64,000 nt of DNA from Coprobacillus sp. (GTDB taxonomy: Bacteria > Bacillota_I > Bacilli_A > RFN20 > CAG-826). Below, one piece after another: positions 7,282 through 23,524 of this stretch. How positions within the stretch are numbered: the stretch's first letter is position 1; each line of letters opens with the position of its first letter. The DNA lies in the NCBI GenBank assembly GCA_021203905.1, contig JAJQAG010000004.1:65090-129089 (forward strand). Reading direction: 5' to 3'. Both the position numbers and the translations under genes were made by a program. Below the pieces are notes generated by a model. It was not told where the DNA came from, ran no database searches, and was given only the letters and a program-made list of their open reading frames with translations.

Positions 7282-7332
7282 GCGTGTATTAACCAAAAAT
7301 TAACCGGATTTTTGATTATTTTGTGGGGTTTT

Positions 7333-7467: not shown

Positions 7468-9807
7468 ATGACCTATTTAATCTGCTTATTAACTATTGTC
7501 ATCCCTGGGGGAATATATTCAATCCTTAGATTCTTAACAAAGATCTTCACTAAGGAAAGAATCGTTTGGTTATTAAGGACATTGGCTATCCTTGCTTTGG
7601 GTGTCTTTATCGTCAGATACTTCTCGACAGGAACGACCTTATTTACAGAAATCTTTGGTATGAAATCGAGTGAAGAAAATCCACAATTCTCTTCCTCTTT
7701 TACTTGTGTGATGGCGGATATCTGTGTGTGGTTTGAGTTCATGACGGTGATCATCGTGGTTCTCTACCCCTTCTTTATGAACAAATACCCCATCTTTATG
7801 AACTACGCTAAGTATCTCGGTCTCTTCTCCTGTGTCCTTAACATTGTCTTCCTTCGTTGGAGCGGCTTTGCCTTTACAGGAGATTACGCTTTAAACCTTA
7901 CCAGTGTGATGCTCGCGATAGAGATAGCCCTTGTCACACTCCTTTGTTTATATCCATACTCCGAAAAGGATGGGTATAAAATCTCTAAAAAAGAAGGAAA
8001 GGAAATGGGTATCTATCTTCCAGTAATCCTTCTTTTTTCTATCCCATTTTTCTTCTTCCAACCCCTAACTGGAAACCTTGGTCAATACCGCGCTGTGGAC
8101 TTTGATTTCTATCATCGTGTCTATCTCTATGCCGCGGTGGTTATCGTTATTGGGATGTATTTCTTACTCAGGAAGAGGGATCGGGAATTTATTCGTATGA
8201 TGTTGCTCTACGTCTCTCTAAGTATGCTGACAGCATACTTCTTCGATAAAGACTTTAACTGGTTCGCTTCTCCTAGTGAATATCCTCTTGGAATTATTGA
8301 TCTCTGTATGATCCTTATTCCCCTCTGTCTCTTGGTGAAGTGTAAGTGGCTGTATTACTTTACATTCCTTGTGGGAAGTGTAGGAGCCTTCGTCATGATG
8401 TTTATGCCCTCCTATAGTGCGAACTATGGCTTCTTCTATGCGGAGACGATGCAGTTCTGGATTGCTCAGATTGCGGTCTTTACTCTCCCCATCTTGATGG
8501 TGATGTGTCGAGTGTACGAGAGACCACAAAGTAAGGATTTAGGAGTGACTATAGGAGTCTTAGCCGCCTACGTCATTGTGGCAAGCTTTCTCTCTGGGTG
8601 GTTCAGCGGTCTATATGGAGAGTGCGACTTTGCCTATCTCAATAGTGCCTACCTTGCCTCTCAGATTGGAATGACCTCCTTCTTTAATAACAATGTGTGG
8701 ACTTTCTATCTTGGAGAGGTGGCGACTTCCATCCATCACTGGTATGTCTTAGCATACTTTGGCGTCTATGCCGTCTTTACAGTTATTGTCTATTATCTCT
8801 TTGTCTGGATCTTTTCCGTCCAAGACTACTTTACAAACATTGAAAATATTAATCATAAAATCCGCGTGGATGAATATATGAAAATGCAAGAACATCCCGG
8901 TGAAAAGGCAGGTGAGATTATGAATGAAGAAAGTGTCGACAAACTCGTTGTTAAGCATCTCTATAAGAGATACTCTCGTAGCAAGGTTTTATCCGTCGAA
9001 GATGCGAACTTTGAGGTGAGAGGGGGAGAGATCCTCGGCTTCCTCGGTCACAATGGCGCGGGTAAATCCACAATTATCAAATGTATCGTTGGTATTCAAC
9101 CCCCCTCAAGTGGAAGTGTGGAAATCAATGGCTACGATATCGCTAAAGAACCTGAAGAGGCCAAGATGCAGATTGGCTTCGTCCCTGATCACTATGCCTT
9201 ATATGAAAAACTCACCGGTCGTGAATATATTAACTATGTCGCTGACTTATATAAAGTCAGTAAAGAAGATAGAGATGAGCGATTAGAAAGATTATGCAAT
9301 AATCTTTCAATGACTAAAGCTATCGATAATCCTATTAATACCTATTCTCATGGTATGAAGCAGAAGACCGCGATTATGGCCGCCTTAATCCACGAGCCGA
9401 AACTCTGGATTCTCGATGAGCCACTCACGGGTCTTGATCCAACCTCAATCTATGAAGTGAAGGAGTGTATGAAAGAGCACGCCGCTAAAGGTAACATTGT
9501 CTTCTTCTCCTCTCACTTAATCGATGTCGTTGAGAAACTCTGTGATCGTATCATCATGATTAAAGAAGGTCACATCCTTCTCTCTGAACCCCTTGCGGAT
9601 ATTGAAGCGGAACACTCTGACCTCGAGCAATTCTATCTCGATGTCAATGCCACGCCCGTAGAGAGAAGAGTGGTCAATGATAAAGAGTTTAAGAAAATTA
9701 CTAAAGGAGAACCTAACGACTCTTACTTCTTTAAAACAGAAGATAAAGAAAAGAAGGTCAAAGTGAAAAAGGAAAAGGCTGAAAGTCAAGAAACTAGTGC
9801 GGAATAA
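7468..9807 (+). CDS. Atypical ABC protein with an N-terminal ~520-aa polytopic membrane domain fused to a C-terminal ABC ATPase domain. The ORF-track start at 7312 probably reads through the promoter region, with the likely start being the ATG at 7468.
   Basis: Walker A GHNGAGKST, signature-like YSHGMKQK, Walker B LWILDEPLTGLD, and an H-loop SSH. The Q-loop position reads IGFVPD, so D replaces the usual Q. The N-terminal half has many hydrophobic helices of unknown family. Confidence 0.75.
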   Translation: MTYLICLLTIVIPGGIYSILRFLTKIFTKERIVWLLRTLAILALGVFIVRYFSTGTTLFTEIFGMKSSEENPQFSSSFTCVMADICVWFEFMTVIIVVLYPFFMNKYPIFMNYAKYLGLFSCVLNIVFLRWSGFAFTGDYALNLTSVMLAIEIALVTLLCLYPYSEKDGYKISKKEGKEMGIYLPVILLFSIPFFFFQPLTGNLGQYRAVDFDFYHRVYLYAAVVIVIGMYFLLRKRDREFIRMMLLYVSLSMLTAYFFDKDFNWFASPSEYPLGIIDLCMILIPLCLLVKCKWLYYFTFLVGSVGAFVMMFMPSYSANYGFFYAETMQFWIAQIAVFTLPILMVMCRVYERPQSKDLGVTIGVLAAYVIVASFLSGWFSGLYGECDFAYLNSAYLASQIGMTSFFNNNVWTFYLGEVATSIHHWYVLAYFGVYAVFTVIVYYLFVWIFSVQDYFTNIENINHKIRVDEYMKMQEHPGEKAGEIMNEESVDKLVVKHLYKRYSRSKVLSVEDANFEVRGGEILGFLGHNGAGKSTIIKCIVGIQPPSSGSVEINGYDIAKEPEEAKMQIGFVPDHYALYEKLTGREYINYVADLYKVSKEDRDERLERLCNNLSMTKAIDNPINTYSHGMKQKTAIMAALIHEPKLWILDEPLTGLDPTSIYEVKECMKEHAAKGNIVFFSSHLIDVVEKLCDRIIMIKEGHILLSEPLADIEAEHSDLEQFYLDVNATPVERRVVNDKEFKKITKGEPNDSYFFKTEDKEKKVKVKKEKAESQETSAE

Positions 9808-9812
9808 AAGTT

Positions 9813-11555
9813 ATGGATGAGCAAGTAGTGGAAAAGAAGAGCTTTAAAGAGAGAATGTCTCACGTGTGGCACGCCGTGGCCTCTGTCTTTGCTACTGACC
9901 TTAGTGATGTCGCGGTACTCTACCGCATGCAGGTCAGAGAAAAGGTTGATTTCTCATATTTAAAGAGTGCCAAGAAAGCTCTTGGTCGTGGGCTTGTCCT
10001 TCTCGCCGAGTTTGCAATCGTCATGGCGGTTACTTATGGAATTCTTTGGGGTTGCCGTTATCTCGGTCTCTTCTCCCCTCTTGGCATTATTCCCACTTCC
10101 GTCATGAACGTTGTCTTCATCGTTCTCTTCCTCTTCTCCATCATCTCTTGTATGATTAGCCTTTCAAGAGATCTGTTTAAGGCGAAAGATAATGTCGTTC
10201 TTGAAACCTATCCAGTGAAGGCTAATGATATCTATCTCTCTAAGCTTGCGGTAGCGGTAGTGAAGGAAGTAAGAAGAACGATTATCTTCTATGTCCCAAT
10301 TTTCTTTGCCTACGCAGTGATTGCGGGACTAGCGGTCTACGCTTACTTCTGGATTCTCTTCTGGTTTATCTTCTTTACACTCTTTGAAATATTACTCGCG
10401 GGCATCTTAGCCCTTCCTGTCTACTATATTATTAGGTTCTTTAACCACTTCAACTGGGTAAAGATTGTCCTTGCGGTGGTCTTTGTGCTCGCTCTCATCT
10501 TCCTTGTGGTGTGGCTTGCCAGTATCATTCCCAGTAACATCAACCTCATAAGGACTTGGTCCGCAGTGAGTGAGTGGTTACGTGCTTTCCTCTCGTGGTG
10601 CACGGATAACCTGTATATCTTCTATGCCTTTACGACTTTCCTTGTGGGGAAACAACAAGGGGCAAGCATCATCTTCTTCACCAACTATTCTTGGTCAGTT
10701 CCTCTTATTATCATCGGTTGTATCCTCGTCTTCTTTGTCATCAATATCATTATCTCTAAGTACTTATACTTAAGGATTACGATGAGACAAAACGAGACCA
10801 CCCAAAAAGAGCACAAGGTCAAGAATAATGTCGCCCGCTCATCTTTTGGAGCGGGAGTCTACTACGAGAGTAAGAGAATCCTCTCCTATGGAGGAAAGCT
10901 AGCGACGATGATCACTGTGGTCATTGCCCTTCCACTGATGATTATCTTACTTAATCTTATCTATGCCGCGATGAAGACCAGACTCATGGGTGATTATCTC
11001 ATTGTCTGCTTTAACATCTTAGTTATTGTCCTGTTTACCACCTCCTCGAATGTGTGGGTGTCATCTATCTATTCAAAAGATGCGAATGCCCTGGTGATGG
11101 CAAGAACCTTCCCCACGAACTATGGGCAGACTCTCTTCCCGAGACTTGTCCTCCCCGCTTTAGTGACCGTTTTAACGGTTCTCCCTTCAACCTTTATCTT
11201 TACGATCCTGCAGGGGATTGGAGGTTGGGATATCCTATGGATAATTCTTATAGAATTATGCGTCTGTCTTGGTCATCTCCTTTGGAGTGCGGAGATTGAT
11301 TTCACGCATCCAAAACCTGAATTATATGAAACTAGTGGTAACGCTGCTTCTAACCCTAACGAAGCCAAGAGTATTGGTCTCTCCTTTGGATTAAGCGCGA
11401 TTACCATGGGACTTGTCTTAGTCTTCTTACTCATTAGCTCTAGTTATATGTATTTAAGAGTGCTATTATTTGCCGCCATCTTCCTCATATATCGTATTGT
11501 TTCCTTCTGTCTGAAGGGAAAGGCATTAAATAAACAAGAAGGAGGGAAGGAGTAA
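9813..11555 (+). CDS. Large polytopic membrane protein, a putative ABC-2-type exporter permease partner
   Basis: 580 aa with more than 12 predicted TM helices. It is translationally coupled to the upstream ATPase fusion, with a 5-nt gap. Confidence 0.55.
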   Translation: MDEQVVEKKSFKERMSHVWHAVASVFATDLSDVAVLYRMQVREKVDFSYLKSAKKALGRGLVLLAEFAIVMAVTYGILWGCRYLGLFSPLGIIPTSVMNVVFIVLFLFSIISCMISLSRDLFKAKDNVVLETYPVKANDIYLSKLAVAVVKEVRRTIIFYVPIFFAYAVIAGLAVYAYFWILFWFIFFTLFEILLAGILALPVYYIIRFFNHFNWVKIVLAVVFVLALIFLVVWLASIIPSNINLIRTWSAVSEWLRAFLSWCTDNLYIFYAFTTFLVGKQQGASIIFFTNYSWSVPLIIIGCILVFFVINIIISKYLYLRITMRQNETTQKEHKVKNNVARSSFGAGVYYESKRILSYGGKLATMITVVIALPLMIILLNLIYAAMKTRLMGDYLIVCFNILVIVLFTTSSNVWVSSIYSKDANALVMARTFPTNYGQTLFPRLVLPALVTVLTVLPSTFIFTILQGIGGWDILWIILIELCVCLGHLLWSAEIDFTHPKPELYETSGNAASNPNEAKSIGLSFGLSAITMGLVLVFLLISSSYMYLRVLLFAAIFLIYRIVSFCLKGKALNKQEGGKE

Positions 11556-11557
11556 AT

Positions 11558-11995
11558 ATGAAAAAGTCATCTCTATTCTTGATTGTTATTATCTATATTG
11601 TGTCAATTGTCGCCATTACATTCTTTGGTCAGTCCATTGAGATGGATCAATACAAAGTCTATATGTCTGATATTTGGATTAGCAATGAATCAGAAATTGT
11701 CTCTGGCAGCGATAACATTCGTAATATCAACATTACCTTTAATGATGATGAAGGGTGGGGCGGAATCATCCTTCACTATGAGTTCCTTCCTGAAGATGCG
11801 ACCGATAGTGACGCCGTGAAGTGGTCCTTATATGGTAACACTGGTATCTTAGCGGACACTGGTGAAGAGGTCGTTATTGCGGATATCGATGGGAAGGGAG
11901 AAGTGGTCTTCCATCGTCGAGGAATGGTGACCGCTTACGTGACCACAACCGATGGAAGTAACCTCGTCGATTCTGTGAGAATTACTTGCCGTTAG
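11558..11995 (+). CDS. Small membrane-anchored protein with a Big_2-like (bacterial Ig-like) C-terminal domain
   Basis: N-terminal TM/signal anchor. The C-terminus (…VVIADIDGKGEVVFHRRGMVTAYVTTTDGSNLVDSVRITC) resembles Big_2 domains. Confidence 0.5.
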   Translation: MKKSSLFLIVIIYIVSIVAITFFGQSIEMDQYKVYMSDIWISNESEIVSGSDNIRNINITFNDDEGWGGIILHYEFLPEDATDSDAVKWSLYGNTGILADTGEEVVIADIDGKGEVVFHRRGMVTAYVTTTDGSNLVDSVRITCR

Positions 11996-12028
11996 TGGAC
12001 TTTTTACGGAAAAATACTTAAAATATGA

Positions 12029-12056
12029 ATTGTGCCAAAAACGGCACAATTTTTAT
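12029..12056 (+). terminator. Intrinsic terminator after the island ABC operon
   Basis: ATTGTGCC-aaaaac-GGCACAAT followed by TTTTAT. Confidence 0.75.
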
Positions 12057-12113
12057 AAATTCCGTGTTTTTCAAGTCATTTTTATCAACGAAACGGCGAT
12101 ATTTTTAATTTTT

Positions 12114-12142
12114 TTGGTTTTTCAGTGGTTATTGTGTAGAAT
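12114..12142 (+). promoter_or_regulatory. Putative promoter of lipoprotein paralog 1 (TTGGTT-17-TAGAAT)
   Basis: Hexamers with 17-bp spacing. A good RBS AAGAGG lies 11 nt before the ATG at 12188. Confidence 0.35.
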
Positions 12143-12187
12143 ATAGTTAGTGAGAAGGATATAGGGATGAAGAAAGAGGCATAAGAT

Positions 12188-14842
12188 ATGAAAAAGAGAC
12201 TATTTTTAATGTCATGCATTGCGCTACTATCCGTGGGCTGTGTGACGATGACATCTTGTAAAGGAAAAGATGAAAGAAAGAATGAGTCTGTCAGTGTGGA
12301 GTTATATGGGCTTTATGCCTATTACTATCCAACCGATTCTATTGATTGGGATAGTGTCTATCTCGATGTCACTGTTTACGATAAAAAAGAAGAGATTGAT
12401 CATCTCACTCTCACTAGTGGAGAGTTTGATGTTAGTAAGCAAACTAGTGAGGAGAGCGACTTCGCTTTAAATACCTCTGGTCTTTATACAAATTCCATAA
12501 ATCAAAATACGATTCCGGAAGGGACTTATTCCCTTTCTTATTCTCTTGATTACAACGGAAGGGTCTATAGTGATAGTCTTTTCTCTATCACTGTGGCGAG
12601 CAATTTCTCTGGCATCCTTGAAGCGGAAACCTTCCAGCAACCAGATTCCATTATTAAATTCCTTCAGAATCAACAGAGAGTGGATAGTGAAGATAGTGAG
12701 AGTGAAAGCAATTTCATCGACTATGTCGATGAATATGTGGTTGGAGATGATAATCCCTTTATCTATCGTCCCACACTCGATCTTGTTCCCATTGGAGATA
12801 GCAGCGCTCGTCACTCCTATCCTAATGGTTATCCCGCTATTGTGACGGTAACTTACGACGGAAAAGAATTAGATTTAGATAATAACGAATATGTGACCTT
12901 TGATAGCGCAACCTTTGGTTTCCAGTTCACTAGCGAAGCCATTGGAAAGAGTTTTACTCTTTCTGTCTTTCCAAAAGACTTTAATGCGGACTGGTCTGGT
13001 CTTGCTCTTCAAACCCAGTCATTAACTGTCACTGTTCAAGATGGATACAATGTGTTTAAGGCTCTTGATTTAGGTCGTATGGCCCTTTCTAGTGGCGCGG
13101 ACTACTACATTGATGAAACCAATCACACGAGAACAGATAATAAAGGGAATTACTATGTCCCCTTTAGTAACTATATGTCCGAAGAGAATATTCTCTTTGT
13201 TCAAGATGAAACCACCGGACAAGCTCATTTTGAAAAGATTCGTTACGACGAGACTTGGTATAACTTCCTCGAAAGTCGTGGAGAGACTAATCTCAACGCT
13301 GTCAACGGCATCTTCTTACACGATGACATGGTGATTACGAACAATGATCTTCCTAGTGAATTCATCATTGGAGAAGATGAAGCGAAGTTCTTTGGAGTGG
13401 AATACGACGATATGGTGGGTTCCCTTAGAGATGAAGTCACTATCTATGACCACCAAATGGAAGAAGACTTTACTCTTAATGGTAATCTCTTTGATCTCGA
13501 CGCTAGTCATCTAAAGTGGGCGATGACTCGCCACTTAAACGATGATCCACTAGAGGGAGATGAAAGTGAGAGACAATTGATTTATTACACCGAGAATAAT
13601 ACCTCTTATGATGAAGGTCATAATGTCTTACTCTACGCTGATAACCACATTACCAAGAAAGATGATAGTAAATATCTTAAAGAGGACTTCTTAACCACTC
13701 ACGATGGTGAGAATAAGAAAGTCTATACCTTAAAGAACGTGGAACTCTTTGGTAACCAAGAGAGAAACTGGAATTTTGATCAAGCGAATGAAACTGAGGA
13801 TGCCTCTAAGGCCAGTGGATGTATGACTTGTTTTGAAAGCCGCGCTGGTAGCGCGGTGGTAAATAACGTCATCGTGAAGCACTTCCTTACTTCCTTCTAT
13901 TCTAATTACACTCTCAGTGGAGTGAAATGCTTAAATATCAGTGACTCAAAAATCTATGACTGCTATGGATGCGCTCTTTATGCGAGATACTCCGCAGAAA
14001 ATGTCATCTCTAATTCTGTCTTAAGACGTTTTGGAGGACCCGTTGTCGTCATGATGAGTGGAGAGGGAATCTGTGCTCATAGTGGTTATGATTATTCGAA
14101 AGTCGGATTTGAATTTACCAGTGATGTCGATTGTGAGGCCAACCTCTATGGTGGTGAGTCATGGTTTGATATTTACAATATCAAATCATATATCTCCTAT
14201 CTCAACTGGTTTGATGTTCTCTTCACCGGTGGTAGTCTCCTTGGGATGTTCTCCTTCCCTTCTATGGGTAAGACCATGTTTAATCCTGAGAGAAGCGATG
14301 GAGATTACTTTAATCTCATCGGTGGAGGATTTGATTATCGTGTCTATGGTGGATATCCTATCTATACCTCCCTTTCCTATAATGGAGTGGACTACACTTA
14401 CGACAGCCACTACGGACAAGAATTTAGTTATGTTGAGGATGGTGATCCTGATGATCCCGACAACCCCGATTACACCTACACTGATATCGATGGCTTTGAG
14501 CCCGATACCGAGTGCTTCTCTTACCTTGTGAACTCCTTCATTAATGATTCTAGTATGTCGAGTGTGGATCTCAGTGGTTTCCTCACCTTAACCACTCTCC
14601 CTGTCTTTATGACTAACACTGGAGAAGTCTTTGCCCTTGCTAGTGGCACAAAATTACTTGGACTTCCCCTTGATATGTATCTTGTTGATCTTAAGGCTTA
14701 CTACAATCGTGAGGACGAGTCCTCAAATGTTTTAAATTATAAATTTACTTCTCTTAATCCTGAGGATGACACGGTGTTTATGTATCTTAACATTGCGGGC
14801 ATTGTCTTAACCCTTTGTTTCTCCCTCTACGATTGTGACTAG
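12188..14842 (+). CDS. Large surface lipoprotein, paralog 1 of a 3-member tandem family (possibly beta-helix-type repeats)
   Basis: Signal peptide plus lipobox (LLSVGC). 884 aa. About 75-80% identical to paralog 2. Has a C-terminal hydrophobic tail (YLNIAGIVLTLCFSLY). Confidence 0.85.
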   Translation: MKKRLFLMSCIALLSVGCVTMTSCKGKDERKNESVSVELYGLYAYYYPTDSIDWDSVYLDVTVYDKKEEIDHLTLTSGEFDVSKQTSEESDFALNTSGLYTNSINQNTIPEGTYSLSYSLDYNGRVYSDSLFSITVASNFSGILEAETFQQPDSIIKFLQNQQRVDSEDSESESNFIDYVDEYVVGDDNPFIYRPTLDLVPIGDSSARHSYPNGYPAIVTVTYDGKELDLDNNEYVTFDSATFGFQFTSEAIGKSFTLSVFPKDFNADWSGLALQTQSLTVTVQDGYNVFKALDLGRMALSSGADYYIDETNHTRTDNKGNYYVPFSNYMSEENILFVQDETTGQAHFEKIRYDETWYNFLESRGETNLNAVNGIFLHDDMVITNNDLPSEFIIGEDEAKFFGVEYDDMVGSLRDEVTIYDHQMEEDFTLNGNLFDLDASHLKWAMTRHLNDDPLEGDESERQLIYYTENNTSYDEGHNVLLYADNHITKKDDSKYLKEDFLTTHDGENKKVYTLKNVELFGNQERNWNFDQANETEDASKASGCMTCFESRAGSAVVNNVIVKHFLTSFYSNYTLSGVKCLNISDSKIYDCYGCALYARYSAENVISNSVLRRFGGPVVVMMSGEGICAHSGYDYSKVGFEFTSDVDCEANLYGGESWFDIYNIKSYISYLNWFDVLFTGGSLLGMFSFPSMGKTMFNPERSDGDYFNLIGGGFDYRVYGGYPIYTSLSYNGVDYTYDSHYGQEFSYVEDGDPDDPDNPDYTYTDIDGFEPDTECFSYLVNSFINDSSMSSVDLSGFLTLTTLPVFMTNTGEVFALASGTKLLGLPLDMYLVDLKAYYNREDESSNVLNYKFTSLNPEDDTVFMYLNIAGIVLTLCFSLYDCD

Positions 14843-14881
14843 CTCTTACAAAGACAAATCTCTTTTAAACCAATACGAGAA

Positions 14882-14905
14882 AAGGGAAGAGAAATCTCCC
14901 TTTTT
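14882..14905 (+). terminator. Intrinsic terminator after lipoprotein 1
   Basis: AAGGGA-agagaaatc-TCCCTT followed by TTTTT. Confidence 0.55.
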
Positions 14906-14943
14906 CTTATTATTCGGTTTTACTCTTTTTAGGGAAATAGAGG

Positions 14944-14979
14944 ACATTTGTGGCACAAATGTTCGTTTTTTTTTTTTTT
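14944..14979 (+). terminator. Second hairpin plus T14 tract downstream of lipoprotein 1 (terminator with an unusually long U-tract)
   Basis: ACATTTGTG-g-CACAAATGT palindrome followed by tcg and then 14 consecutive T (14966-14979). Confidence 0.55.
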
Positions 14980-15103
14980 AAAATAAAAAACGCTGAATTA
15001 TTTAAAATTAGTTTATCTTTTAGAAAAAGATATTTATAATAAACGCGATTAGACAAAAGGGGACCCCTACGGGGGTGAATGATGGAAGGAAAAAGCGCAA
15101 AAA

Positions 15104-17746
15104 ATGAAAAGAAGAATGTTTATAATGTCGTGTATCGCTCTGATGTCAGTGGGGTGTGTGACGACAACTTCATGTGAAGAAATAGAAAAAAGATTAAATG
15201 AGTCTCTCAGTGTGGAGTTATATGGACTTAATGCCTATTATTCGCCCACTGATTCAATCGATTGGGAGAGTGTCTATCTCGATGTGACAGTCTTCAACAA
15301 GAAAGAAGAAGTCAATCACTTTACTCTTACTGATGGAGAGTTTGATGTGATTGAGCAAACTAGTGAGGAAAGCGGGTTTGCTCTTGATACCTCTGGTCTC
15401 TACACTAATAGTGTTAATGAAAATACAATTCCGGAAGGGACCTATCCCCTTACCTACTATTTTACCTATAATGAACAAGTCTATAGCGGTAGTCCTTTCT
15501 CTATCGTGGTGGCCTATGACTTCACTGCGGCTTATGAAGTAGTGGCCTTCCAGCAACCAGACACTATTATTAAATTCCTTCAGAATCAACAGAGAGTGGA
15601 TCGTGAAGACGATGTGAGTGAAAGCAATTTCATCGACTATGTCGATGAATATGTGGTTGGGGATGATAATCCTTTTATCTATCGTCCCACCCTCGAACTT
15701 ATTCCCACGGGAGAGGAGGACGCTACTCACCTCTATCCCACTAATTATCCAGTGAATGTCACTGTCACTGATGTTAGTGGAGAAGACGAAGAAGAATTAG
15801 ATCTTGATAATAATGAATATGTGACCTTTGATAGTGCGACCTTTGGTTTCCAATTCACTAGTGAAGCCATTGGAAAGAGTTTTACTCTTTCCGTCTATCC
15901 AAGAGGTTTCAGTCAAGATTTGTTTGGTCTTGCTATTCAAGCCCAGACTTTAACGGTCACTGTTCAAGATGGATATAACGTTTATAAACCTCTTGATTTA
16001 GGTCGTATGGCCCTTTCAAGTGGAAAGGATTACTACATTGATGAGGAAAATCATAGCAGAGTCAATAGTAGGGGATATTACTATGTTCCCTTCTCTAACT
16101 ATGTCACCGAATCAAAAGTTCTCTTTGTTCAAGATGAAGACACCGAGCAAGTCCATTTTGAACGAATTCAATATGACGAGACTTGGTATAACTTCCTTGA
16201 AAGTCGTGGAGAGACTGACTTAACCGCGGTTAACGGCATCTTCTTACACGATGACATGGTGATTACTAATAACGATATTCCTAGTGAATTTGTCATTAGT
16301 GAAGAAGAAGCCAAGTTCTTTGGAGTGGATTACGACGATATGGTGGGCTCTCTTAGAGATGAGGTCGCCATCTACGATCATCAGATGGAAGAGGACTTTA
16401 CCCTTAATGGTAATCTCTTCGCTCTTGATGCGAGCAACCTTAAATGGGCGATGACTCGTCATGGCTATGATGGTTCTGATGATGAATCTGGAAGAGAAAT
16501 AGAATATTATGCTGAGAATAATACTTCTTATGACGAAGGTCATAATGTCCTACTCTATGCGGATAATCACTTTACCCAAGAGGATGATGGTGATTACCTT
16601 AAAGAGGACTTCTTAGCCACTCACGATGGTGAGAATAAGAAGGTCTATACCTTAGAGAATGTCGAGCTCTTTGGTAACCAAGAGAGAAAATGGAATTATG
16701 ATCAAGCGGATGAGAATGAGGATGCCTCTAAGGCCAGTGGTTGTATGACCTGTTTTGAAAGCCGTGCTGGGAGCGCGGTGGTAAATAACGTCATCGTGAA
16801 GCACTTCCTTACTTCCTTCTATGCGTTTTACACTATTGCGGGAGTGACCTGCTTAGATATTAGTGACTCGAAGATCTATGACTGCTATGGAACCGCTTTA
16901 TACGCTCGCTTCTCCGCTGATAACATTATCTCTAACTCCGTCTTAAGACGTTTTGGAGGACCAGTGGTCGTCCTTATTAGTGGTGAAGGCGTCAGCGCTC
17001 ATAGTGGTTATGATTACTCTCGAGCGGGATTTGTATTTACCAGTGATGTCGATTGCGAGGCTAACCTCTATGGTGGTGAGTCATGGTTTGATATTTACAA
17101 TATCAAATCATATATCACTTATCTCAACTGGTTTGATGTTCTCTTTAGCGGTGGCAAACTCCTTGATCTTTACGAATTTAATTCCATGGGTAAGACACTC
17201 TTTAATCCTGAAAGAAGTGATGGAGATTACTTTAATCTCATCGCTGGGGGATTCGACCGTAAGATTAATGGTGGATATCAGATCAATACCTCGATTACCT
17301 ATAATGGAGTGGAGTACACCTATAATAACCACTACGGACAAGAATTCTCTCATACTGGTCAGCAATTCTACTTCACTGACATTGAAGGCTTTGAACCAGA
17401 TACGGAGTGCTTCTCCTATCTTGTGAATAAATTTATTGATGATACAAGTCTCTCATGTGTGGATCTCAGTGGCTATCTTACTTTAGAAACTCTCCCTGTC
17501 TTTATGACTAACACTGGAGAGGTCTTTGCCCTTGCTAGTGGCACACAACTCTTTGGCGTCCCACTAAGTATGTATCTTCTTGATCTTAAGGCTTATTACA
17601 ATCGTGGTGAGGAAGATTCTAGTTCAGCTTCAGACTATAAGTTTACCTCTCTTAATCCTGAGGATGACACGGTGTTTATGTATCTTAATATTGGAGGGAT
17701 CATCTTAACCCTTTGCTTCTCTCTCTACGACACTATTAGTGAATAA
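15104..17746 (+). CDS. Large surface lipoprotein, paralog 2
   Basis: Signal peptide plus lipobox (LMSVGC). 880 aa. Long stretches of near-identical DNA shared with paralog 1. Confidence 0.85.
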   Translation: MKRRMFIMSCIALMSVGCVTTTSCEEIEKRLNESLSVELYGLNAYYSPTDSIDWESVYLDVTVFNKKEEVNHFTLTDGEFDVIEQTSEESGFALDTSGLYTNSVNENTIPEGTYPLTYYFTYNEQVYSGSPFSIVVAYDFTAAYEVVAFQQPDTIIKFLQNQQRVDREDDVSESNFIDYVDEYVVGDDNPFIYRPTLELIPTGEEDATHLYPTNYPVNVTVTDVSGEDEEELDLDNNEYVTFDSATFGFQFTSEAIGKSFTLSVYPRGFSQDLFGLAIQAQTLTVTVQDGYNVYKPLDLGRMALSSGKDYYIDEENHSRVNSRGYYYVPFSNYVTESKVLFVQDEDTEQVHFERIQYDETWYNFLESRGETDLTAVNGIFLHDDMVITNNDIPSEFVISEEEAKFFGVDYDDMVGSLRDEVAIYDHQMEEDFTLNGNLFALDASNLKWAMTRHGYDGSDDESGREIEYYAENNTSYDEGHNVLLYADNHFTQEDDGDYLKEDFLATHDGENKKVYTLENVELFGNQERKWNYDQADENEDASKASGCMTCFESRAGSAVVNNVIVKHFLTSFYAFYTIAGVTCLDISDSKIYDCYGTALYARFSADNIISNSVLRRFGGPVVVLISGEGVSAHSGYDYSRAGFVFTSDVDCEANLYGGESWFDIYNIKSYITYLNWFDVLFSGGKLLDLYEFNSMGKTLFNPERSDGDYFNLIAGGFDRKINGGYQINTSITYNGVEYTYNNHYGQEFSHTGQQFYFTDIEGFEPDTECFSYLVNKFIDDTSLSCVDLSGYLTLETLPVFMTNTGEVFALASGTQLFGVPLSMYLLDLKAYYNRGEEDSSSASDYKFTSLNPEDDTVFMYLNIGGIILTLCFSLYDTISE

Positions 17747-17772
17747 CCTAAGAAATTACTAATGAATACAGA

Positions 17773-17795
17773 AAAGGACCTCGTGGTCCTTTTTT
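17773..17795 (+). terminator. Intrinsic terminator after lipoprotein 2
   Basis: AAAGGACC-tcgt-GGTCCTTT followed by TTTTT. Confidence 0.8.
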
Positions 17796-17925
17796 GGTAG
17801 CGAAAGAAGGAAAAAACGTAAAAAAATATTTACAATACTTTTTTTCTTTATTGAAAGAAAGTGTTAGTTATATAATAACTATGATTGAGTATAGGAAATG
17901 GTATTATAACAAGGAAGTAAGTTAT

Positions 17926-20448
17926 ATGAAAAAGAAAGCCCTTTTATTAGCCACCACCGCAGCATTAGCATTATGCTCCTTCTCCCTCTCTTCATGTAAT
18001 AAAAAGAAAAACAAAGATGTGGAAGAAGAGACTGTTAGTGTGGAAGTCTATGGTTTACAACCATATTATCTACCCACGGATAAGATTGATTGGGATAGTA
18101 TCTATCTAGAAGTGGAAGAGACTTATTACCATCATGGAGAATTTGATGTCACCAGTAAGAGTAAGAGTGAAACGGAATTCACTCTTGATACTTCTGGTCT
18201 CTACACATATACCAGCAATCAAAACACGATTCCTGAAGGGAGTTATCCGATTTCGTATTCCCTCGAATATGAAGGGACAAGCTACAGCGCGAAACTATTT
18301 ACCGTTTACGTGACTTCTAATGTCACCTCTCTCCTTCAAGCGGAATCTTTCTCCCAACCAGAATCAATTATTACCTGGGAGAGAAATCAAACGAGAGTGG
18401 ATACTTCCTCTAGTCAAGATGAGAGTAATTTCATTGAAGGCAAGAGTGAGTACACAGTGGGTTGTGATAATCCCTTTATCTATCGCCCAGTTTTAGAGAT
18501 CAGCGCGAATGACACTAAAAACACCACGGATGTCTATGCCTTCCCAAAGAGCTATGCGGCAAATGTGACTGTCACCCTTGATGGGACGGCGCTTGATGTC
18601 TCAAGTAACGAGTATGTCTCCTTTGATGAGACAGACTTTGGTTTCCAGTTCACTGAAGCGGCTATTGGTAAGACCTTTACCCTCACCATCGCTCCAAGAG
18701 ACTTTACTTCCATTTGGGGAATGTATGTCCTTGAAAGTCAAAGTGTCACGGTGACTGTTCAAAAAGGATGGAATGTCAATAACGCCATCGATCTTGGAAG
18801 AATCAATCTTCTTAGTGATGAGTATAAACCATATATTGACTACTACGAGTACGCAAAACCCAAAGTGAACGAAAAGGAAGTCGCCGGAATCTTCTGGGAC
18901 TCCTCTCGTGGCTACTATAATGAATACAACTATAAGATTTGGGAAAACTTCCTTACTAGTAAAGGAAGAGATGATCTTACTTATACCAGTGCGATATATC
19001 TCCACGATGACATCAATGTCACCATTGATGATATTCCCAGTGAGTTTATCGTCTCTCAAGAAGAGATCAACGCTCAACCAAACCCCAGTCTATATAGCAA
19101 TGATGTCCTTAACTCCGTTAAGGATGGAGTGTATATCTATACTCATTATCTCCAAGGTGAAGACTTTACCCTTGATGGGAATCTCTTCTCCATCCGTTGC
19201 TCCTCTCTTAAGTGGTGCATGACTAGGGTTGATAATGAACAAGGTGATTTTAGATACTACGCGACGAATAAAGCGGACCGCTATAAGATGTGTCACGCGG
19301 CTCTCTTCTCCATTAACGATGTCGCGGATAAGAGTGAAAGTGGACTTCCTAGTGCCCTAACAGAAAGATATAGTGCCACCTTTACTAATATTGAAGCTCA
19401 CGGAAACCAAGAGAGAATTAATCCAGAAGAAGCGACAAGCTATGATAGTCAACTCGCTAGTGGTTGCCTCATCTTTCTTAGAAGTGCTTCCAGTAATACG
19501 AAAGTGACTAATGTTTTAGCGAAGAACTTCCTTCAAGGTTATTATTGCTGCTACTCCGATGATAGCTACTGTGCCTTTGAAGTTGATAAATGTAAAATCT
19601 ACGATTGCTATGGATCTCCTTTCTTTGGTTATGGCAGTAGTAAGAATAAGACCACTAATAGTATTATGTCTCGTTTCGGTGGCCCAATCGTCGTCCTTAA
19701 TAGTGTCTATGGCAATAAATTCCAGCATTGTGGTTGGGAGATAGATGAGTGTGATTATGAATCTCTTCTCATCGGGACAGAAGCGTGGTTTGATATCTTA
19801 GGAATCTCCTCTGTTATTCCTTTCTTTACCGATATTGATAATTGCTTTACAGGAAACGGTAATGTCTTTATCCCTGGTTTTACCTCTAAAGGCTATGGTA
19901 AGTCCCTTAAGAATGAAGATGGCTACTTTGATGTTATAGGTGTCGGTAATGATGCCTCAAGCGGAATGATCGGTGGAGAAGTCGTTGATATCTCGATGAC
20001 TTTCGATGGAGATACTTATTCCTATTCGAGTGATGAAGTTCCTAGTGAACCTGACCCCGAAAACTTTGCTTGGGTCGCTAATGCGTATTATTCAGATTAT
20101 GGAACTCTATATGTCGATGGGGGCTTAATGTGCGAGTTAGCGGGTAATCGTCTCCCCATCTTTATGACGAACACCGGAAAGATCTTTGGTATCCTTCTCT
20201 CAAATAGTAGGACCGCTCTCGTCGATATGGTGGACTTCTATACGAAGTACATTGCTATTGATAATGAGTATTCTAATCGAGATAAGACGGACGCTAACGC
20301 TGAAGAAGCCTTCTGGATGGAGCACTATCCTGAGATGGTGGATATCGAATTTGATGAGGATGATACCTCCGTTTTTGGAATTGATATCACCTCAGCGATG
20401 ACCATTTGTCTCGCCCTAAGACTCTTTGATTATCCCTACGCGGAATAA
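17926..20448 (+). CDS. Large surface lipoprotein, paralog 3, a more divergent family member. The ORF-track start at 17794 reads through the promoter region, and the ATG at 17926 has an AAGGAAG RBS.
   Basis: MKKKALLLATTAALALCSFSLSSC signal/lipobox. Conserved family blocks (VSVEVYGL, NQNTIPEG, NPFIYRP, FGFQFTEAAIGKTFTL, VTVTVQ, LDLGR, LHDD, FTLDGNLF, KIYDCYG, RFGGP.VV). Confidence 0.8.
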   Translation: MKKKALLLATTAALALCSFSLSSCNKKKNKDVEEETVSVEVYGLQPYYLPTDKIDWDSIYLEVEETYYHHGEFDVTSKSKSETEFTLDTSGLYTYTSNQNTIPEGSYPISYSLEYEGTSYSAKLFTVYVTSNVTSLLQAESFSQPESIITWERNQTRVDTSSSQDESNFIEGKSEYTVGCDNPFIYRPVLEISANDTKNTTDVYAFPKSYAANVTVTLDGTALDVSSNEYVSFDETDFGFQFTEAAIGKTFTLTIAPRDFTSIWGMYVLESQSVTVTVQKGWNVNNAIDLGRINLLSDEYKPYIDYYEYAKPKVNEKEVAGIFWDSSRGYYNEYNYKIWENFLTSKGRDDLTYTSAIYLHDDINVTIDDIPSEFIVSQEEINAQPNPSLYSNDVLNSVKDGVYIYTHYLQGEDFTLDGNLFSIRCSSLKWCMTRVDNEQGDFRYYATNKADRYKMCHAALFSINDVADKSESGLPSALTERYSATFTNIEAHGNQERINPEEATSYDSQLASGCLIFLRSASSNTKVTNVLAKNFLQGYYCCYSDDSYCAFEVDKCKIYDCYGSPFFGYGSSKNKTTNSIMSRFGGPIVVLNSVYGNKFQHCGWEIDECDYESLLIGTEAWFDILGISSVIPFFTDIDNCFTGNGNVFIPGFTSKGYGKSLKNEDGYFDVIGVGNDASSGMIGGEVVDISMTFDGDTYSYSSDEVPSEPDPENFAWVANAYYSDYGTLYVDGGLMCELAGNRLPIFMTNTGKIFGILLSNSRTALVDMVDFYTKYIAIDNEYSNRDKTDANAEEAFWMEHYPEMVDIEFDEDDTSVFGIDITSAMTICLALRLFDYPYAE

Positions 20449-20477: not shown

Positions 20478-20501
20478 GACTAGACGATGTCTAGTCTTTT
20501 T
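20478..20501 (+). terminator. Intrinsic terminator after lipoprotein 3
   Basis: GACTAGAC-gat-GTCTAGTC followed by TTTTT. Confidence 0.8.
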
Positions 20502-20599: not shown

Positions 20600-21841
20600 A
20601 TGTATTTCGTTAAACAAGAAACCACCTATGACTGTCTCTTTACCTGCTTAAAGATTCTTTTAGCCTCTTGTTATCGAGAGAAGAAGTATCTCTATCTAGC
20701 GAGAAAAAAGGATGAAGCTTATTCCTTTTATGATGTCAAAGAGATTGGACAAGAGTATGGTGTCGAGCTTGTTGGTTATCAAACAGAAGAGAAAGATCTC
20801 TCTTCTTTTAAAGATCAAACCATTATCCTCTCCATCAATAAAGACGGCCGGCGTCACGCGGTCATCTTACATAAAGTGGGAAAGAAGAGATGTCAAATTA
20901 TTGACCCAAGTATAGGAAGGCTACGGGTCAGGACATCCTTACTTTTAGAGTGGTGGGACAGGACCTTTTTACTGCTTGAAAATAAATCCCTTCTCGAAAA
21001 TTCATCACTTCAACATCGACATCGTTTTACCCCAAATGACTGTTCCACCCTCTCTCTTAAAGGTCGTGGCCTCGACCTTTATCTCTATAAGTTTCTCTCT
21101 TCTCTTTTTATCATCCTCGGTCTCTTTTTTGTCACCTCGACCTATTTTCTTCTCCCTATCTGTTTCTTCGCTCTCTTCGCCCTTTTTGAAGTTCTCTATC
21201 AAGTAGTGTTAATTAAGAAGATGAAGGAAGTCGATAATCTCTTTTTCCTTTCCCTGAAGCACCCCCTACACACAAAAGAAGAATTAAAGACTTATGAGGA
21301 GTATAAAAGTCAACTCATCTCTCTTCCCGTGATGAGTATGTATGCGATGCTTGTCGCCCTGTTTCTCACCTTTCTATTAGCCTATAACTCTTTATATAAT
21401 CTCATCTTTGTCGGTGTGGTTTTTCTTTTCGCCCTCGTTAAAAGACTCTTTCTTTCTCACCAAACGGAGAGAAAGAAGAGAGAGATTGATAATAAGGAAG
21501 ATGATCTTTTTAAGCAAGAGAGCATCGAAGAGTTTAAAAAGAGTCTCTCTTCCCTTCACACTGAAGTTTATTCCTATACCTATCAAGGCTCCATTTATAA
21601 CTATATCGAATTATTCTTTCTCATCCTCGCGATTATCTTATCGATGTATCTCCAACATATTCTTTCACTTTCTTATGTCTTACTTTACTTTGCCACTTCT
21701 TACTACCTAAAGGAGAACATCGATAAGATAACTTCCCTCCCCACTAGTCTTAGTGACTACACTCTCGTCAAGAGCAAATACTCCACATTGATCTATCACA
21801 ATCAACATGACACGAAAAAAGAAGAAGTTGTGAGTGGATAG
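20600..21841 (+). CDS. C39 (bacteriocin-processing, double-glycine leader) cysteine peptidase domain fused to a 4-6-TM membrane domain, with no ABC ATPase domain (orphan or truncated PCAT-like protein)
   Basis: N-terminus matches the C39 catalytic motifs: Q-x5-DC (VKQETTYDC), HAVILHKV…IIDPS and EWW, aligning with ComA/CvaB peptidase domains (QVDQMDCG; HYYVV…IADP; EEW). Hydrophobic helices follow. The gene ends 48 nt before the next gene. Confidence 0.8.
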   Translation: MYFVKQETTYDCLFTCLKILLASCYREKKYLYLARKKDEAYSFYDVKEIGQEYGVELVGYQTEEKDLSSFKDQTIILSINKDGRRHAVILHKVGKKRCQIIDPSIGRLRVRTSLLLEWWDRTFLLLENKSLLENSSLQHRHRFTPNDCSTLSLKGRGLDLYLYKFLSSLFIILGLFFVTSTYFLLPICFFALFALFEVLYQVVLIKKMKEVDNLFFLSLKHPLHTKEELKTYEEYKSQLISLPVMSMYAMLVALFLTFLLAYNSLYNLIFVGVVFLFALVKRLFLSHQTERKKREIDNKEDDLFKQESIEEFKKSLSSLHTEVYSYTYQGSIYNYIELFFLILAIILSMYLQHILSLSYVLLYFATSYYLKENIDKITSLPTSLSDYTLVKSKYSTLIYHNQHDTKKEEVVSG

Positions 21842-21937
21842 ATTTTAACGAGAACTATTCCCTAATTTCTTTCCCTCACATGTCCCTAAATGCTCTCTTA
21901 TCTTTACTTAGAGAGAGAAACTGCTATAATAAAGGCA

Positions 21938-23524
21938 ATGAAAAAACATGTTATTACCTTAGCCTTAACGATTGTGGTTTCTTTAAGTGCACTTTCTCTT
22001 TCAGGTTGTGATTCATCCTCCTCTTATGAAAGAGTGGATTGCGGGAAATACGGAACAATCTATCAAATTTTCCCCTATTCTTTTGCGGATAGTAATGGAG
22101 ATGGGATTGGAGATATCAAAGGGATTAGCGATAAGCTCGATTATATTGCGGATCTCGGTTTTACAGGAATTTGGATTAATCCTGTTCAACCCTCGCCCAC
22201 CTATCACAAATACGACACCACTGATTACTATTCTATCGATCCTGACTTTGGAACGATTGATGATTATAAAGCGATGGTGGAAAAGGCTCACAGCCTTGAT
22301 TTAACTGTATATCTTGACCTTGTTATTAATCACACCTCCACCCAACACGATTGGTTTAAGCAAAGCGCGAATGCTCATGTGAGTGGAGATACATCAAATG
22401 CCTACTATAACTACTATTATTGGAACCAAGGTGGGAGTGGAGATAATGGAACCTATTCTCGATATGGTTCCTCCGATTGGTACTATAGCCACTATAGCGG
22501 GGATACCCAGATGCCACGACTTAACCTTCAATGGGTTCTAGATGATCCTGAATGCGCTCTGGCTAAAGAACTAGAAAATATCATGGAGTTTTGGCTCGTT
22601 GAGTGTGATGTTGATGGCTTTAGACTCGATGCGGTGACCTCCTATTTTCCCTCTGGTGACACGACCGCTTTCCTCACTTGGTTAGTAGATACCGCTAGAA
22701 GTTATAAAGCTGATTGCTATATCGTTGGGGAAGGTAGCTGGGGAACAAGTAGTAGTAACTCTTCTTATCTAGAGAGCGGGATTGATTCCTTCTTCTGCTT
22801 TGATGACGCAAAGACCAGCGGTTATATTTTAAAAACTTTATCTAATGGGAATGCGAGACTCCTTGCTAGTGGTATTAATAACAATCTCTCCGTCTTTGAT
22901 AATGTGAACAATATTCCCTCTCCCTTTATTGTCAATCACGATTGTAATGGTCGTTTAGTCTCGATGGCCAATGCTCGTAAAGAGACACAAAATCTCAAGT
23001 TTGCGTACGCAACGTTACAGATGTATACCGGTTCCACCTATCATTACTATGGTGATGAAATCGGAATGGCCTGTGCTTCAACCACCAAAGACGAAGATGC
23101 CAGAGCCCCATTCTACTGGGGAGATAGCTACACTCCTGACTATGTTAGTAATAGCACATCTATCTCTCAGGATGAGGCCTATCCTTATGGAAGCGCAAAG
23201 AAACTCTTAAGTAAAAAAGACTCCTCCGTGAACTATGTGAGAAAAGTTAATCAGGTGAGAAATAGTCACCCCGCGATCTTTAGTGGCGGTATTGAAGAGA
23301 TCTATGAGAGCGCTGATCGCACTTTCTCCGCCAATGTGAAGACTTGTGATAGTGAATCTCTTCTCATCCTTCTCAATGCTTCTAAAACTGATAGTTATAC
23401 TTACACAAATGATACAAGCTATACCTCGATTATCGCGGATCTATCCACCATCAGTGGAACGAAACTTCAGAGTCAAGGAAGCGAGTTAATCGTTCCGCCT
23501 CTCTCTATTTGCATCCTTGGTTAA
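21938..23524 (+). CDS. GH13 alpha-amylase-family lipoprotein (alpha-glucosidase/amylase-like). The likely start is the ATG at 21938, since the ORF opens at 21890.
   Basis: Lipobox LSLSGC. GH13 conserved regions DLVINHTS, GFRLDAV, IVGEGSW and FIVNHD. Confidence 0.85.
   Translation: MKKHVITLALTIVVSLSALSLSGCDSSSSYERVDCGKYGTIYQIFPYSFADSNGDGIGDIKGISDKLDYIADLGFTGIWINPVQPSPTYHKYDTTDYYSIDPDFGTIDDYKAMVEKAHSLDLTVYLDLVINHTSTQHDWFKQSANAHVSGDTSNAYYNYYYWNQGGSGDNGTYSRYGSSDWYYSHYSGDTQMPRLNLQWVLDDPECALAKELENIMEFWLVECDVDGFRLDAVTSYFPSGDTTAFLTWLVDTARSYKADCYIVGEGSWGTSSSNSSYLESGIDSFFCFDDAKTSGYILKTLSNGNARLLASGINNNLSVFDNVNNIPSPFIVNHDCNGRLVSMANARKETQNLKFAYATLQMYTGSTYHYYGDEIGMACASTTKDEDARAPFYWGDSYTPDYVSNSTSISQDEAYPYGSAKKLLSKKDSSVNYVRKVNQVRNSHPAIFSGGIEEIYESADRTFSANVKTCDSESLLILLNASKTDSYTYTNDTSYTSIIADLSTISGTKLQSQGSELIVPPLSICILG

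Follow-up and report, generated by a model that had tools for sequence, protein, structure and literature searches.

The 64,000-nucleotide stretch of Coprobacillus sp. DNA analyzed here (the window) carries three consecutive genes for large paralogous lipoproteins, named G1, G2, and G3 for the first, second, and third paralogue of the array. These genes belong to a widespread, unnamed four-part module that spans positions 7468 to 20448 of the window. Its parts are a fusion protein composed of an ATGY membrane domain and an ATP-binding cassette (ABC) ATPase, an ABC-2 permease, a membrane-anchored Big_2 protein, and one to three lipoproteins with a beta-helix. A preliminary description of the array covered positions 12188-20448 and thus ended short of the transporter genes at 7468-11995. 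Because the architecture resembles that of NosDFY, we read G1 to G3 as alternative beta-helix components of one ABC-2 machine, that is, as the extracytoplasmic parts of a conserved module that would work by NosDFY logic, and we judge the chances of this reading to be slightly better than even. Because the lipoproteins are tied to one particular ABC-2 transporter, three anonymous genes can now be treated as a testable machine.

In every homologous locus opened (L-numbers denote homologue loci and P-numbers homologue proteins), three genes precede the lipoprotein gene on the same strand, encoding a fusion protein of 730 to 850 amino acids, a membrane protein of about 550 to 590 amino acids, and a small protein of about 130 to 170 amino acids. 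The window holds the same three genes at 7468-9807, 9813-11555, and 11558-11995, all on the plus strand. The order ATGY-ABC fusion, permease, small protein (present between permease and lipoprotein in most loci), and lipoprotein, all on one strand, was found in 50 of the 55 species-level genome loci having enough upstream DNA. In three of the remaining five the cassette is rearranged, L061 was misclassified, as it carries a cassette whose start is cut off by the contig end, and L067 is a true orphan. The linked loci span Clostridia, Bacilli, Erysipelotrichaceae, Christensenellales, and Oscillospiraceae. In a reciprocal test, 80 metagenome loci were found with the permease, and a family lipoprotein was encoded downstream in 39 of the 40 that had at least 3 kb of downstream sequence. 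The outer flanks of the loci differ between lineages, and therefore the four-part module is the conserved unit.

The first cassette gene (7468-9807) encodes an ATGY (TMEM164/YwaF-like) polytopic membrane domain followed by a C-terminal ABC ATPase (Pfam ABC_tran, E 2e-30). Its open reading frame (ORF) opens at a TTG at 7312, corresponding to 831 amino acids, but the ATG at 7468 is likely the start of the protein, because the sister-species protein (780 amino acids) starts at the equivalent ATG and the family alignment indicates this start as well. The fusion is encoded by a single ORF in all cassette loci, and we found no description of an ATGY-ABC ATPase fusion in the literature. The best matches of the ATPase profile were the nucleotide-binding domains (NBDs) of ABCA1/3/4/7 (E about 1e-73), bacterial ABC-2-class NBDs, LptB, and NosF (3e-36). 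All defining elements of an ABC ATPase are present: the motifs GHNGAGKST, YSHGMKQK, ILDEP, and FSSH are invariant in the family (alignment A3), and Walker A, Walker B with its catalytic glutamate, and the H-loop are canonical. Two features of the NBD (window positions 8990-9600) are unusual, namely a signature motif that reads YSHGM rather than the usual SGG-type sequence and a Q-loop that reads VPDH, in which aspartate replaces the canonical glutamine in all family members of alignment A3.

The ATGY superfamily comprises membrane transacylases with a nucleophile/His (Cys/His) dyad (bioRxiv 10.1101/2022.07.06.498872) and includes LhaT, the lipoprotein N-acetyl transferase of B. subtilis (PMC12345273). 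The fused domain of relatives resembles ATGY acyltransferases such as TMEM164, YwaF, and LhaT/YpjA in that it matches Pfam TMEM164 (PF14808; 29-74 bits at a cut-off of 25) and in that the dyad motifs WPLHLCN and FWINHY, with their Cys and His, are kept in 27 of 29 cassettes; it differs from them by its fusion to an ABC ATPase. The window protein stays below the Pfam threshold and gave no match; it is 49% identical to the L010 protein, and its homology to the family is established by alignment A3. It also lacks both dyad residues: YPLGIIDLC replaces WPLHLCN and FWIAQI replaces FWINHY (residues about 273-334, with GII...Q at the dyad positions). The same loss is found in the sister species (L008, 5257-7599). 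The ATGY domain is thus probably catalytically dead in these two species, which belong to the clade with three lipoprotein copies.

The second gene (9813-11555) encodes a 12-transmembrane (12-TM) permease with a tandem ABC-2 (type V) fold. Its best structural match was NosY, FtsX-type folds ranked far below ABC-2 folds, and a PDB sequence search with the permease profile gave no match. The third gene (11558-11995) encodes a small protein with an N-terminal membrane anchor and one Big_2-like immunoglobulin (Ig) domain. In alignment A4 the conserved anchor, MKKS followed by a hydrophobic stretch and FFG, precedes the pattern P.NAT...V.F...VD..G.VTF..G...I..TDGS; the Big_2 match is weak and was obtained with the homologue from L084.

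Three consecutive lipoprotein genes for 884, 880, and about 840 amino acids had been reported in the preliminary description, and this is correct; all three are on the same strand. G1 lies at 12188-14842, G2 at 15104-17746, and G3 at 17926-20448 (+). The G3 ORF as called extends from an upstream TTG at 17794 to 20448 (+). The ATG at 17926, which gives 840 amino acids, is most likely the true start, because it is preceded by the ribosome-binding site AAGGAAG, a strong terminator hairpin overlaps the upstream TTG, and the product equals the deposited 840-residue protein P0005. The three products are identical to the hypothetical proteins LUC31_02705, 02710, and 02715 of the Coprobacillus sp. metagenome-assembled genome (MAG). 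All three begin with the claimed signal peptidase II (SPII)-type N-terminus, consisting of a positively charged start, a hydrophobic core, and a lipobox ending in Cys (MKKRLFLMSCIALLSVGCVTMTSC in G1 and MKKKALLLATTAALALCSFSLSSC in G3), and are predicted to be processed by signal peptidase II. Nearly all relatives have an SPII-type N-terminus, and the only N-terminal residue found invariant, in 33 of 33 and again in 51 of 51 family members, is the lipobox Cys (C24 of G1).

An AlphaFold2 model of G1 was confident (predicted local distance difference test [pLDDT] score 82.8, predicted template modeling [pTM] score 0.84). In the model, residues 1-31 form a disordered signal and linker. Beta-sandwich domains then extend to about residue 290, G1 having three Ig-like domains, and are followed by a capping helix at 292-299, the beta-helix (about 370-650), and C-terminal beta domains. 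The stacked three-strand rungs are those of a right-handed parallel beta-helix, and the model thereby bears out the fold proposed in the preliminary description. With Foldseek, the only PDB matches were weak Ig-like ones in the N-terminal domains; a PDB profile search with the family was empty at E <= 10. A Pfam search, which had been suggested as a check, did pick up the Beta_helix family (PF13229), but in G1, G2, and G3 only with 15.2, 15.4, and 17.4 bits, below the gathering threshold of 25.9; at E <= 0.1 the family was matched by 8 of 33 relatives. NCBIfam and PHROGs searches gave no match for the lipoproteins.

Across 51 diverse members, conservation peaks not in the helix but just N-terminal of it, at residues 181-300. 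The motifs in this region are Y183-x-V-G-D-D-N-x-F191, F247 (FxFT), and D285-G-x-N288 (DGxNV), whereas within the helix only isolated polar residues are conserved (H378, D387, D415, N433, N560, and E657). Nearly all family-invariant residues are kept in all three paralogues of the window. G1 and G3 share 54-56% identity in the N-terminal Ig-like part and 30-36% in the helix and C-terminus, a pattern that fits a common anchoring or docking module with variable heads.

In NosDFY, the closest architecture known, the ABC-2 permease NosY and the ATPase NosF work with the beta-helix protein NosD outside the membrane (PMC8457098; PDB 7o0y). Here, too, a beta-helix protein is encoded beside an ABC-2 permease and its ATPase. 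The two systems differ in several respects: the module uses a lipoprotein with a stalk of Ig-like domains as its beta-helix protein, a 12-TM tandem takes the place of the 6-TM permease dimer, an ATGY membrane domain is fused to the ATPase, a Big_2 subunit is added, and the hosts are gut and rumen Bacillota. No gene labeled by Pfam as NosZ or NosL was present within 10 kb in the annotated loci L001 to L009. Our claim is limited to a NosDFY-like mode of action and does not extend to membership of the Nos systems. Other ABC ATPases that drive a partner protein working outside the membrane are those of FtsEX-PcsB/EnvC, LolCDE, and MacB.

From this architecture we infer a physical or functional coupling of the lipoproteins to the transporter, a direction of transport, and the nature of the cargo as follows. 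The lipoprotein would be tethered to the membrane, with a stalk of Ig-like domains bearing the right-handed beta-helix as a head. ATPase and permease would move or present a membrane-derived cargo, which is probably lipid-linked or amphipathic, as hinted at by the ABCA-like NBD and the acyltransferase-like domain, and the beta-helix lipoprotein would bind or process this cargo at the outer face of the membrane. The predicted beta-helix fold hints at a glycan or polymer. Between the old paralogues G1 and G3 of the window, sequence is kept best in the N-terminal Ig-like region and varies in the head, so that one transporter would serve three heads of differing specificity. The reading is supported by the linkage in both directions, the invariant lipobox Cys, the conservation peak at residues 181-300, the ratios of nonsynonymous to synonymous substitution rates (dN/dS) of 0.09 to 0.21, and the terminators and promoters that the lipoprotein genes have of their own (see below). 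Should NosDFY-like coupling hold, nitrous oxide reductase assembly would no longer be a special case, and the pairing of ABC-2 transporters with beta-helix proteins outside the membrane would be a general design; the module would then also point to an unrecognized surface-polymer or lipid pathway in abundant gut anaerobes.

Several observations weigh against this reading. No catalytic residues and no cargo of the lipoproteins were identifiable. NosD itself ranked only 33rd among generic beta-helix structural matches, and none of the 33 lipoprotein members matched the NosD Pfam family at E <= 0.1; NosY as the top match of the permease is suggestive only, as ABC-2 folds are generic. Relatives of up to 2,030 amino acids have 300 to 1,400 extra residues, made up of Ig-like repeats, inserted between lipobox and conserved core; very long N-terminal extensions at this position are found in family members of 1,480 to 2,030 amino acids from L026, L057, L059, L061, L062, L065, L067, and L071. 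Such extensions match Pfam Big_2 or Big_3 in P0026/P0031 and P0033/P0035. They look like stalks that would hold the beta-helix head at a distance from the membrane, which speaks against obligatory docking to the permease. The loss of the ATGY dyad in the window and the sister species indicates that an acyl-transfer step is not essential here. Finally, the linkage is incomplete on both sides: L084 (7738-12064) is the sole cassette of the reciprocal test without an adjacent family lipoprotein, L067 carries a lipoprotein gene without a cassette, and P0011, a fourth copy in the genome of the window, counts as a candidate orphan.

A more far-reaching proposal is that the cassette represents a new Gram-positive envelope machine: the transporter, of the ABC-2 type and equipped with its own ATGY transacylase, would hand lipid-linked cargo to dedicated beta-helix lipoproteins or remodel their lipid anchor, and lineages would multiply the heads to change specificity. 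We regard this as unlikely. If true, the NosDFY principle would be realized for a second time, independently and by another chemistry, in a system represented by roughly a thousand uncharacterized family clusters in gut and rumen bacteria.

It is likewise doubtful that the lipoproteins act as stand-alone surface enzymes for glycan degradation or as adhesins, serving foraging or attachment in the gut, with the ABC cassette as a neighbor that has a separate job. Linkage in both directions, across classes and with unrelated flanks, is far beyond chance, no Pfam family of the carbohydrate-active enzyme (CAZy) or adhesin type was matched, and no sugar-import genes are conserved with the lipoprotein. 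The alpha-amylase gene next to the array in the window is a neighbor only in a close relative. Compared with pectin-lyase-like beta-helix proteins, i.e. phage tailspike depolymerases, glycoside hydrolases (GH28/GH87/GH110), polysaccharide lyase (PL) families, AlgE/AlgG epimerases, PfbA, and serine-rich repeat protein (SRRP) adhesins, the sequences share only 6-14% identity. They also differ from these proteins in that their most conserved residues precede the helix and in their linkage to an ABC transporter. No catalytic motif of the known beta-helix enzyme families was recognizable in them, in agreement with what had been noted by eye.

We consider it quite unlikely that the lipoproteins are instead the substrates of a dedicated maturation or release system, in which remodeling of the lipid anchor or N-terminus would fall to the ATGY domain, and extraction or release of the lipoproteins to the ABC-2 transporter. 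The invariance of the lipobox Cys in 51 of 51 members favors this idea, as do the membership of LhaT and of Cys/His-dyad transacylases in the ATGY superfamily, the retention of both dyad motifs in 27 of 29 cassettes, and the closeness of the NBD to ABCA lipid transporters. It is difficult to reconcile with the loss of the dyad in the window and sister species, which hold the most lipoprotein copies. Moreover, the known lipoprotein extractors LolCDE have a type VII fold and not an ABC-2 fold, and the FtsX-type fold fits the permease far less well.

The relationships within the array were largely as previously described. G1 and G2 are 76% identical at the protein level over their full length by BLASTP and 77.7% identical by global alignment, within the 75-80% that had been estimated, whereas G3 is much more diverged (37% identity to G1 with E 3e-155 by BLASTP, 41.9% by global alignment). 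All ten shared peptide blocks that had been quoted are present in G1, and close variants occur in G3. The reported uninterrupted DNA identities of 35 to 50 nt were also found: the longest runs in the codon alignment of G1 and G2 measure 54, 51, 45, 41, 36, and 35 nt, and the quoted 50-nt tract occurs exactly twice in the window, in G1 at 13851-13900 and in G2 at 16773-16822 (both +), with 0 chance matches expected. When codon columns were shuffled, the mean longest run was 35 nt (standard deviation 6.8), and 54 nt was reached in 1.75% of the shuffles. The runs are therefore genuine, but their excess over the expectation for an overall nucleotide identity of 80% is modest.

Comparison with the sister species (L008), which has the same array at the same genomic position, revealed the history of the triplet. 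Window and sister proteins are 84.5% identical for G1 and 82% for G3, G3 being an old paralogue and the orthologue of the third sister gene, but only 53.5% identical for the middle genes. Both intergenic regions flanking G2 nevertheless align with those of the sister, including near-identical promoter cores and terminators, and the homology between G1 and G2 covers only a segment that begins 19 nt ahead of the ATG and ends about 10 nt short of the stop codon. The rate of synonymous substitution (dS) between G1 and G2 is 0.69 (dN 0.142, dN/dS 0.206), compared to 1.37 for the G1 orthologues (dN 0.118, dN/dS 0.086) and 1.15 for the G3 orthologues (dN 0.125, dN/dS 0.108). Since its flanks are orthologous but its coding sequence is not, and since dS between G1 and G2 is lower than that between the G1 orthologues, the coding sequence of G2 must have been overwritten by that of G1 after the split from the sister species. 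The triplet derives from an older G1/G2/G3 array.

Since then the divergence of G2 has been about twice as rapid as that of G1. Three-point branch estimates, calculated by hand from the dN and dS values, put dN/dS at about 0.28 for the G2 branch and at about 0.12 for the G1 branch. Along the gene dS varies from 0.4 to 1.4, which may reflect patchy conversion but is not conclusive. No sliding window had a dN/dS above 1, and selection is purifying throughout. A dS of 0.69 and 80% nucleotide identity indicate that the event is old rather than part of an ongoing homogenization. Recombination between the copies, as suggested in the preliminary description, thus has a historical basis in the conversion of G2 by G1, but the term "recombination-ready" was an overstatement. 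The locus offers a clean natural example of gene conversion limited to a coding sequence and followed by asymmetric divergence.

Each lipoprotein gene is individually bounded by terminator-like hairpins and has a promoter-like region, and the promoter-like regions of G2 and G3 are conserved in the sister species. Four hairpins were identified on the plus strand, with energies between -9.8 and -18.1 kcal/mol and z <= -5.9 in three of the four. The first, at 12023-12060 (-14.7 kcal/mol, z -6.6), is followed by a U-run and closes the operon of the ABC fusion, permease, and small-protein genes. The others lie after G1 (14942-14979), after G2 (17769-17796; -18.1 kcal/mol, z -5.9; kept in the sister locus), and after G3 (20478-20501). 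An Rfam scan of the window revealed no RNA family. The hairpin after G1 is followed by T14 (14966-14979), the only homopolymer of at least 8 bases in the 64-kb window, located about 35 nt upstream of the putative -35 region of G2. In the sister locus, a tract of similar length (~15 T) occupies the equivalent position (about 12765-12779). T14 could simply be an extended tail of the terminator, or else an UP-like element.

A likeness of the triplet to the multigene families of variable surface lipoproteins in wall-less Firmicutes had also been proposed in the preliminary description. Coprobacillus, the genus of the MAG, belongs to the Erysipelotrichales (Bacillota) and is walled. With the mycoplasma Vsp/Vlp/Vsa systems the array does share tandem lipoprotein paralogues with evidence of recombination, and identical runs of up to 54 nt, a copy number of 1 to 3 between lineages plus orphans, and the T14 tract upstream of the G2 promoter could be taken as further hints. 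G1 to G3, however, are large, globular, and under purifying selection, and no sign of phase-variation machinery was found: there are no tandem repeats in the coding sequences of the array, no repeat-rich variable regions, no inverted repeats bracketing its promoters that would make these invertible, no invertase or other recombinase gene within it, and no homopolymer of at least 8 bases or other hypermutable tract inside a gene or promoter spacer. The T-tract is a terminator tail upstream of the -35 region and hardly differs in length between the two species, the family-invariant residues are nearly all kept in every copy, and most relatives are single-copy. Together with the age of the single coding-sequence-limited conversion in this lineage and dN/dS values of 0.09 to 0.21, this makes a phase- or antigen-variable family, in which recombination between copies creates surface diversity, very improbable.

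The lipoprotein family is large. A word-indexed search found 36 relatives, and an exhaustive profile search yielded 1,172 clusters at 50% identity with E <= 1e-3, 798 of them with E <= 1e-30. Every named member is labeled "hypothetical protein" in the source databases, and no curated family in Pfam (searched also with 33 members), NCBIfam, or PHROGs covers the lipoproteins. The family comes almost wholly from uncultured Bacillota of gut, rumen, and digesters; the 68 loci that GTDB species representatives yielded come without exception from MAGs or uncultured bins of this phylum.

P0011 (LUC31_02415), the fourth family member of the genome, has 894 amino acids, is 34% identical to G1, and is encoded outside the window, roughly 58 genes upstream of the array on the same 267-kb contig. 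In L084, the gene after the cassette is convergent and encodes a 519-residue membrane protein of no recognized family. The only other contig carrying G3, L078 (Logan contig SRR15221294_1597), is an independent assembly with an identical G3 that begins 268 bp upstream of this gene and gives no view of the array; its start may be an assembly break due to the G1/G2 repeat. Downstream of the array, the gene at 20600-21841 encodes a C39-peptidase domain and a multi-pass membrane region without an ABC ATPase domain, with weak NCBIfam similarity to Mbov_0121-type peptidase-ABC transporters and FilB/FapD. The alpha-amylase gene mentioned above follows directly (21890-23524; Pfam Alpha-amylase, 2e-74), and its product has a lipoprotein-type signal peptide with LSLSGC. 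Both genes were excluded as parts of the module; they recur beside the array only in the close relative, for the C39-peptidase gene L008.

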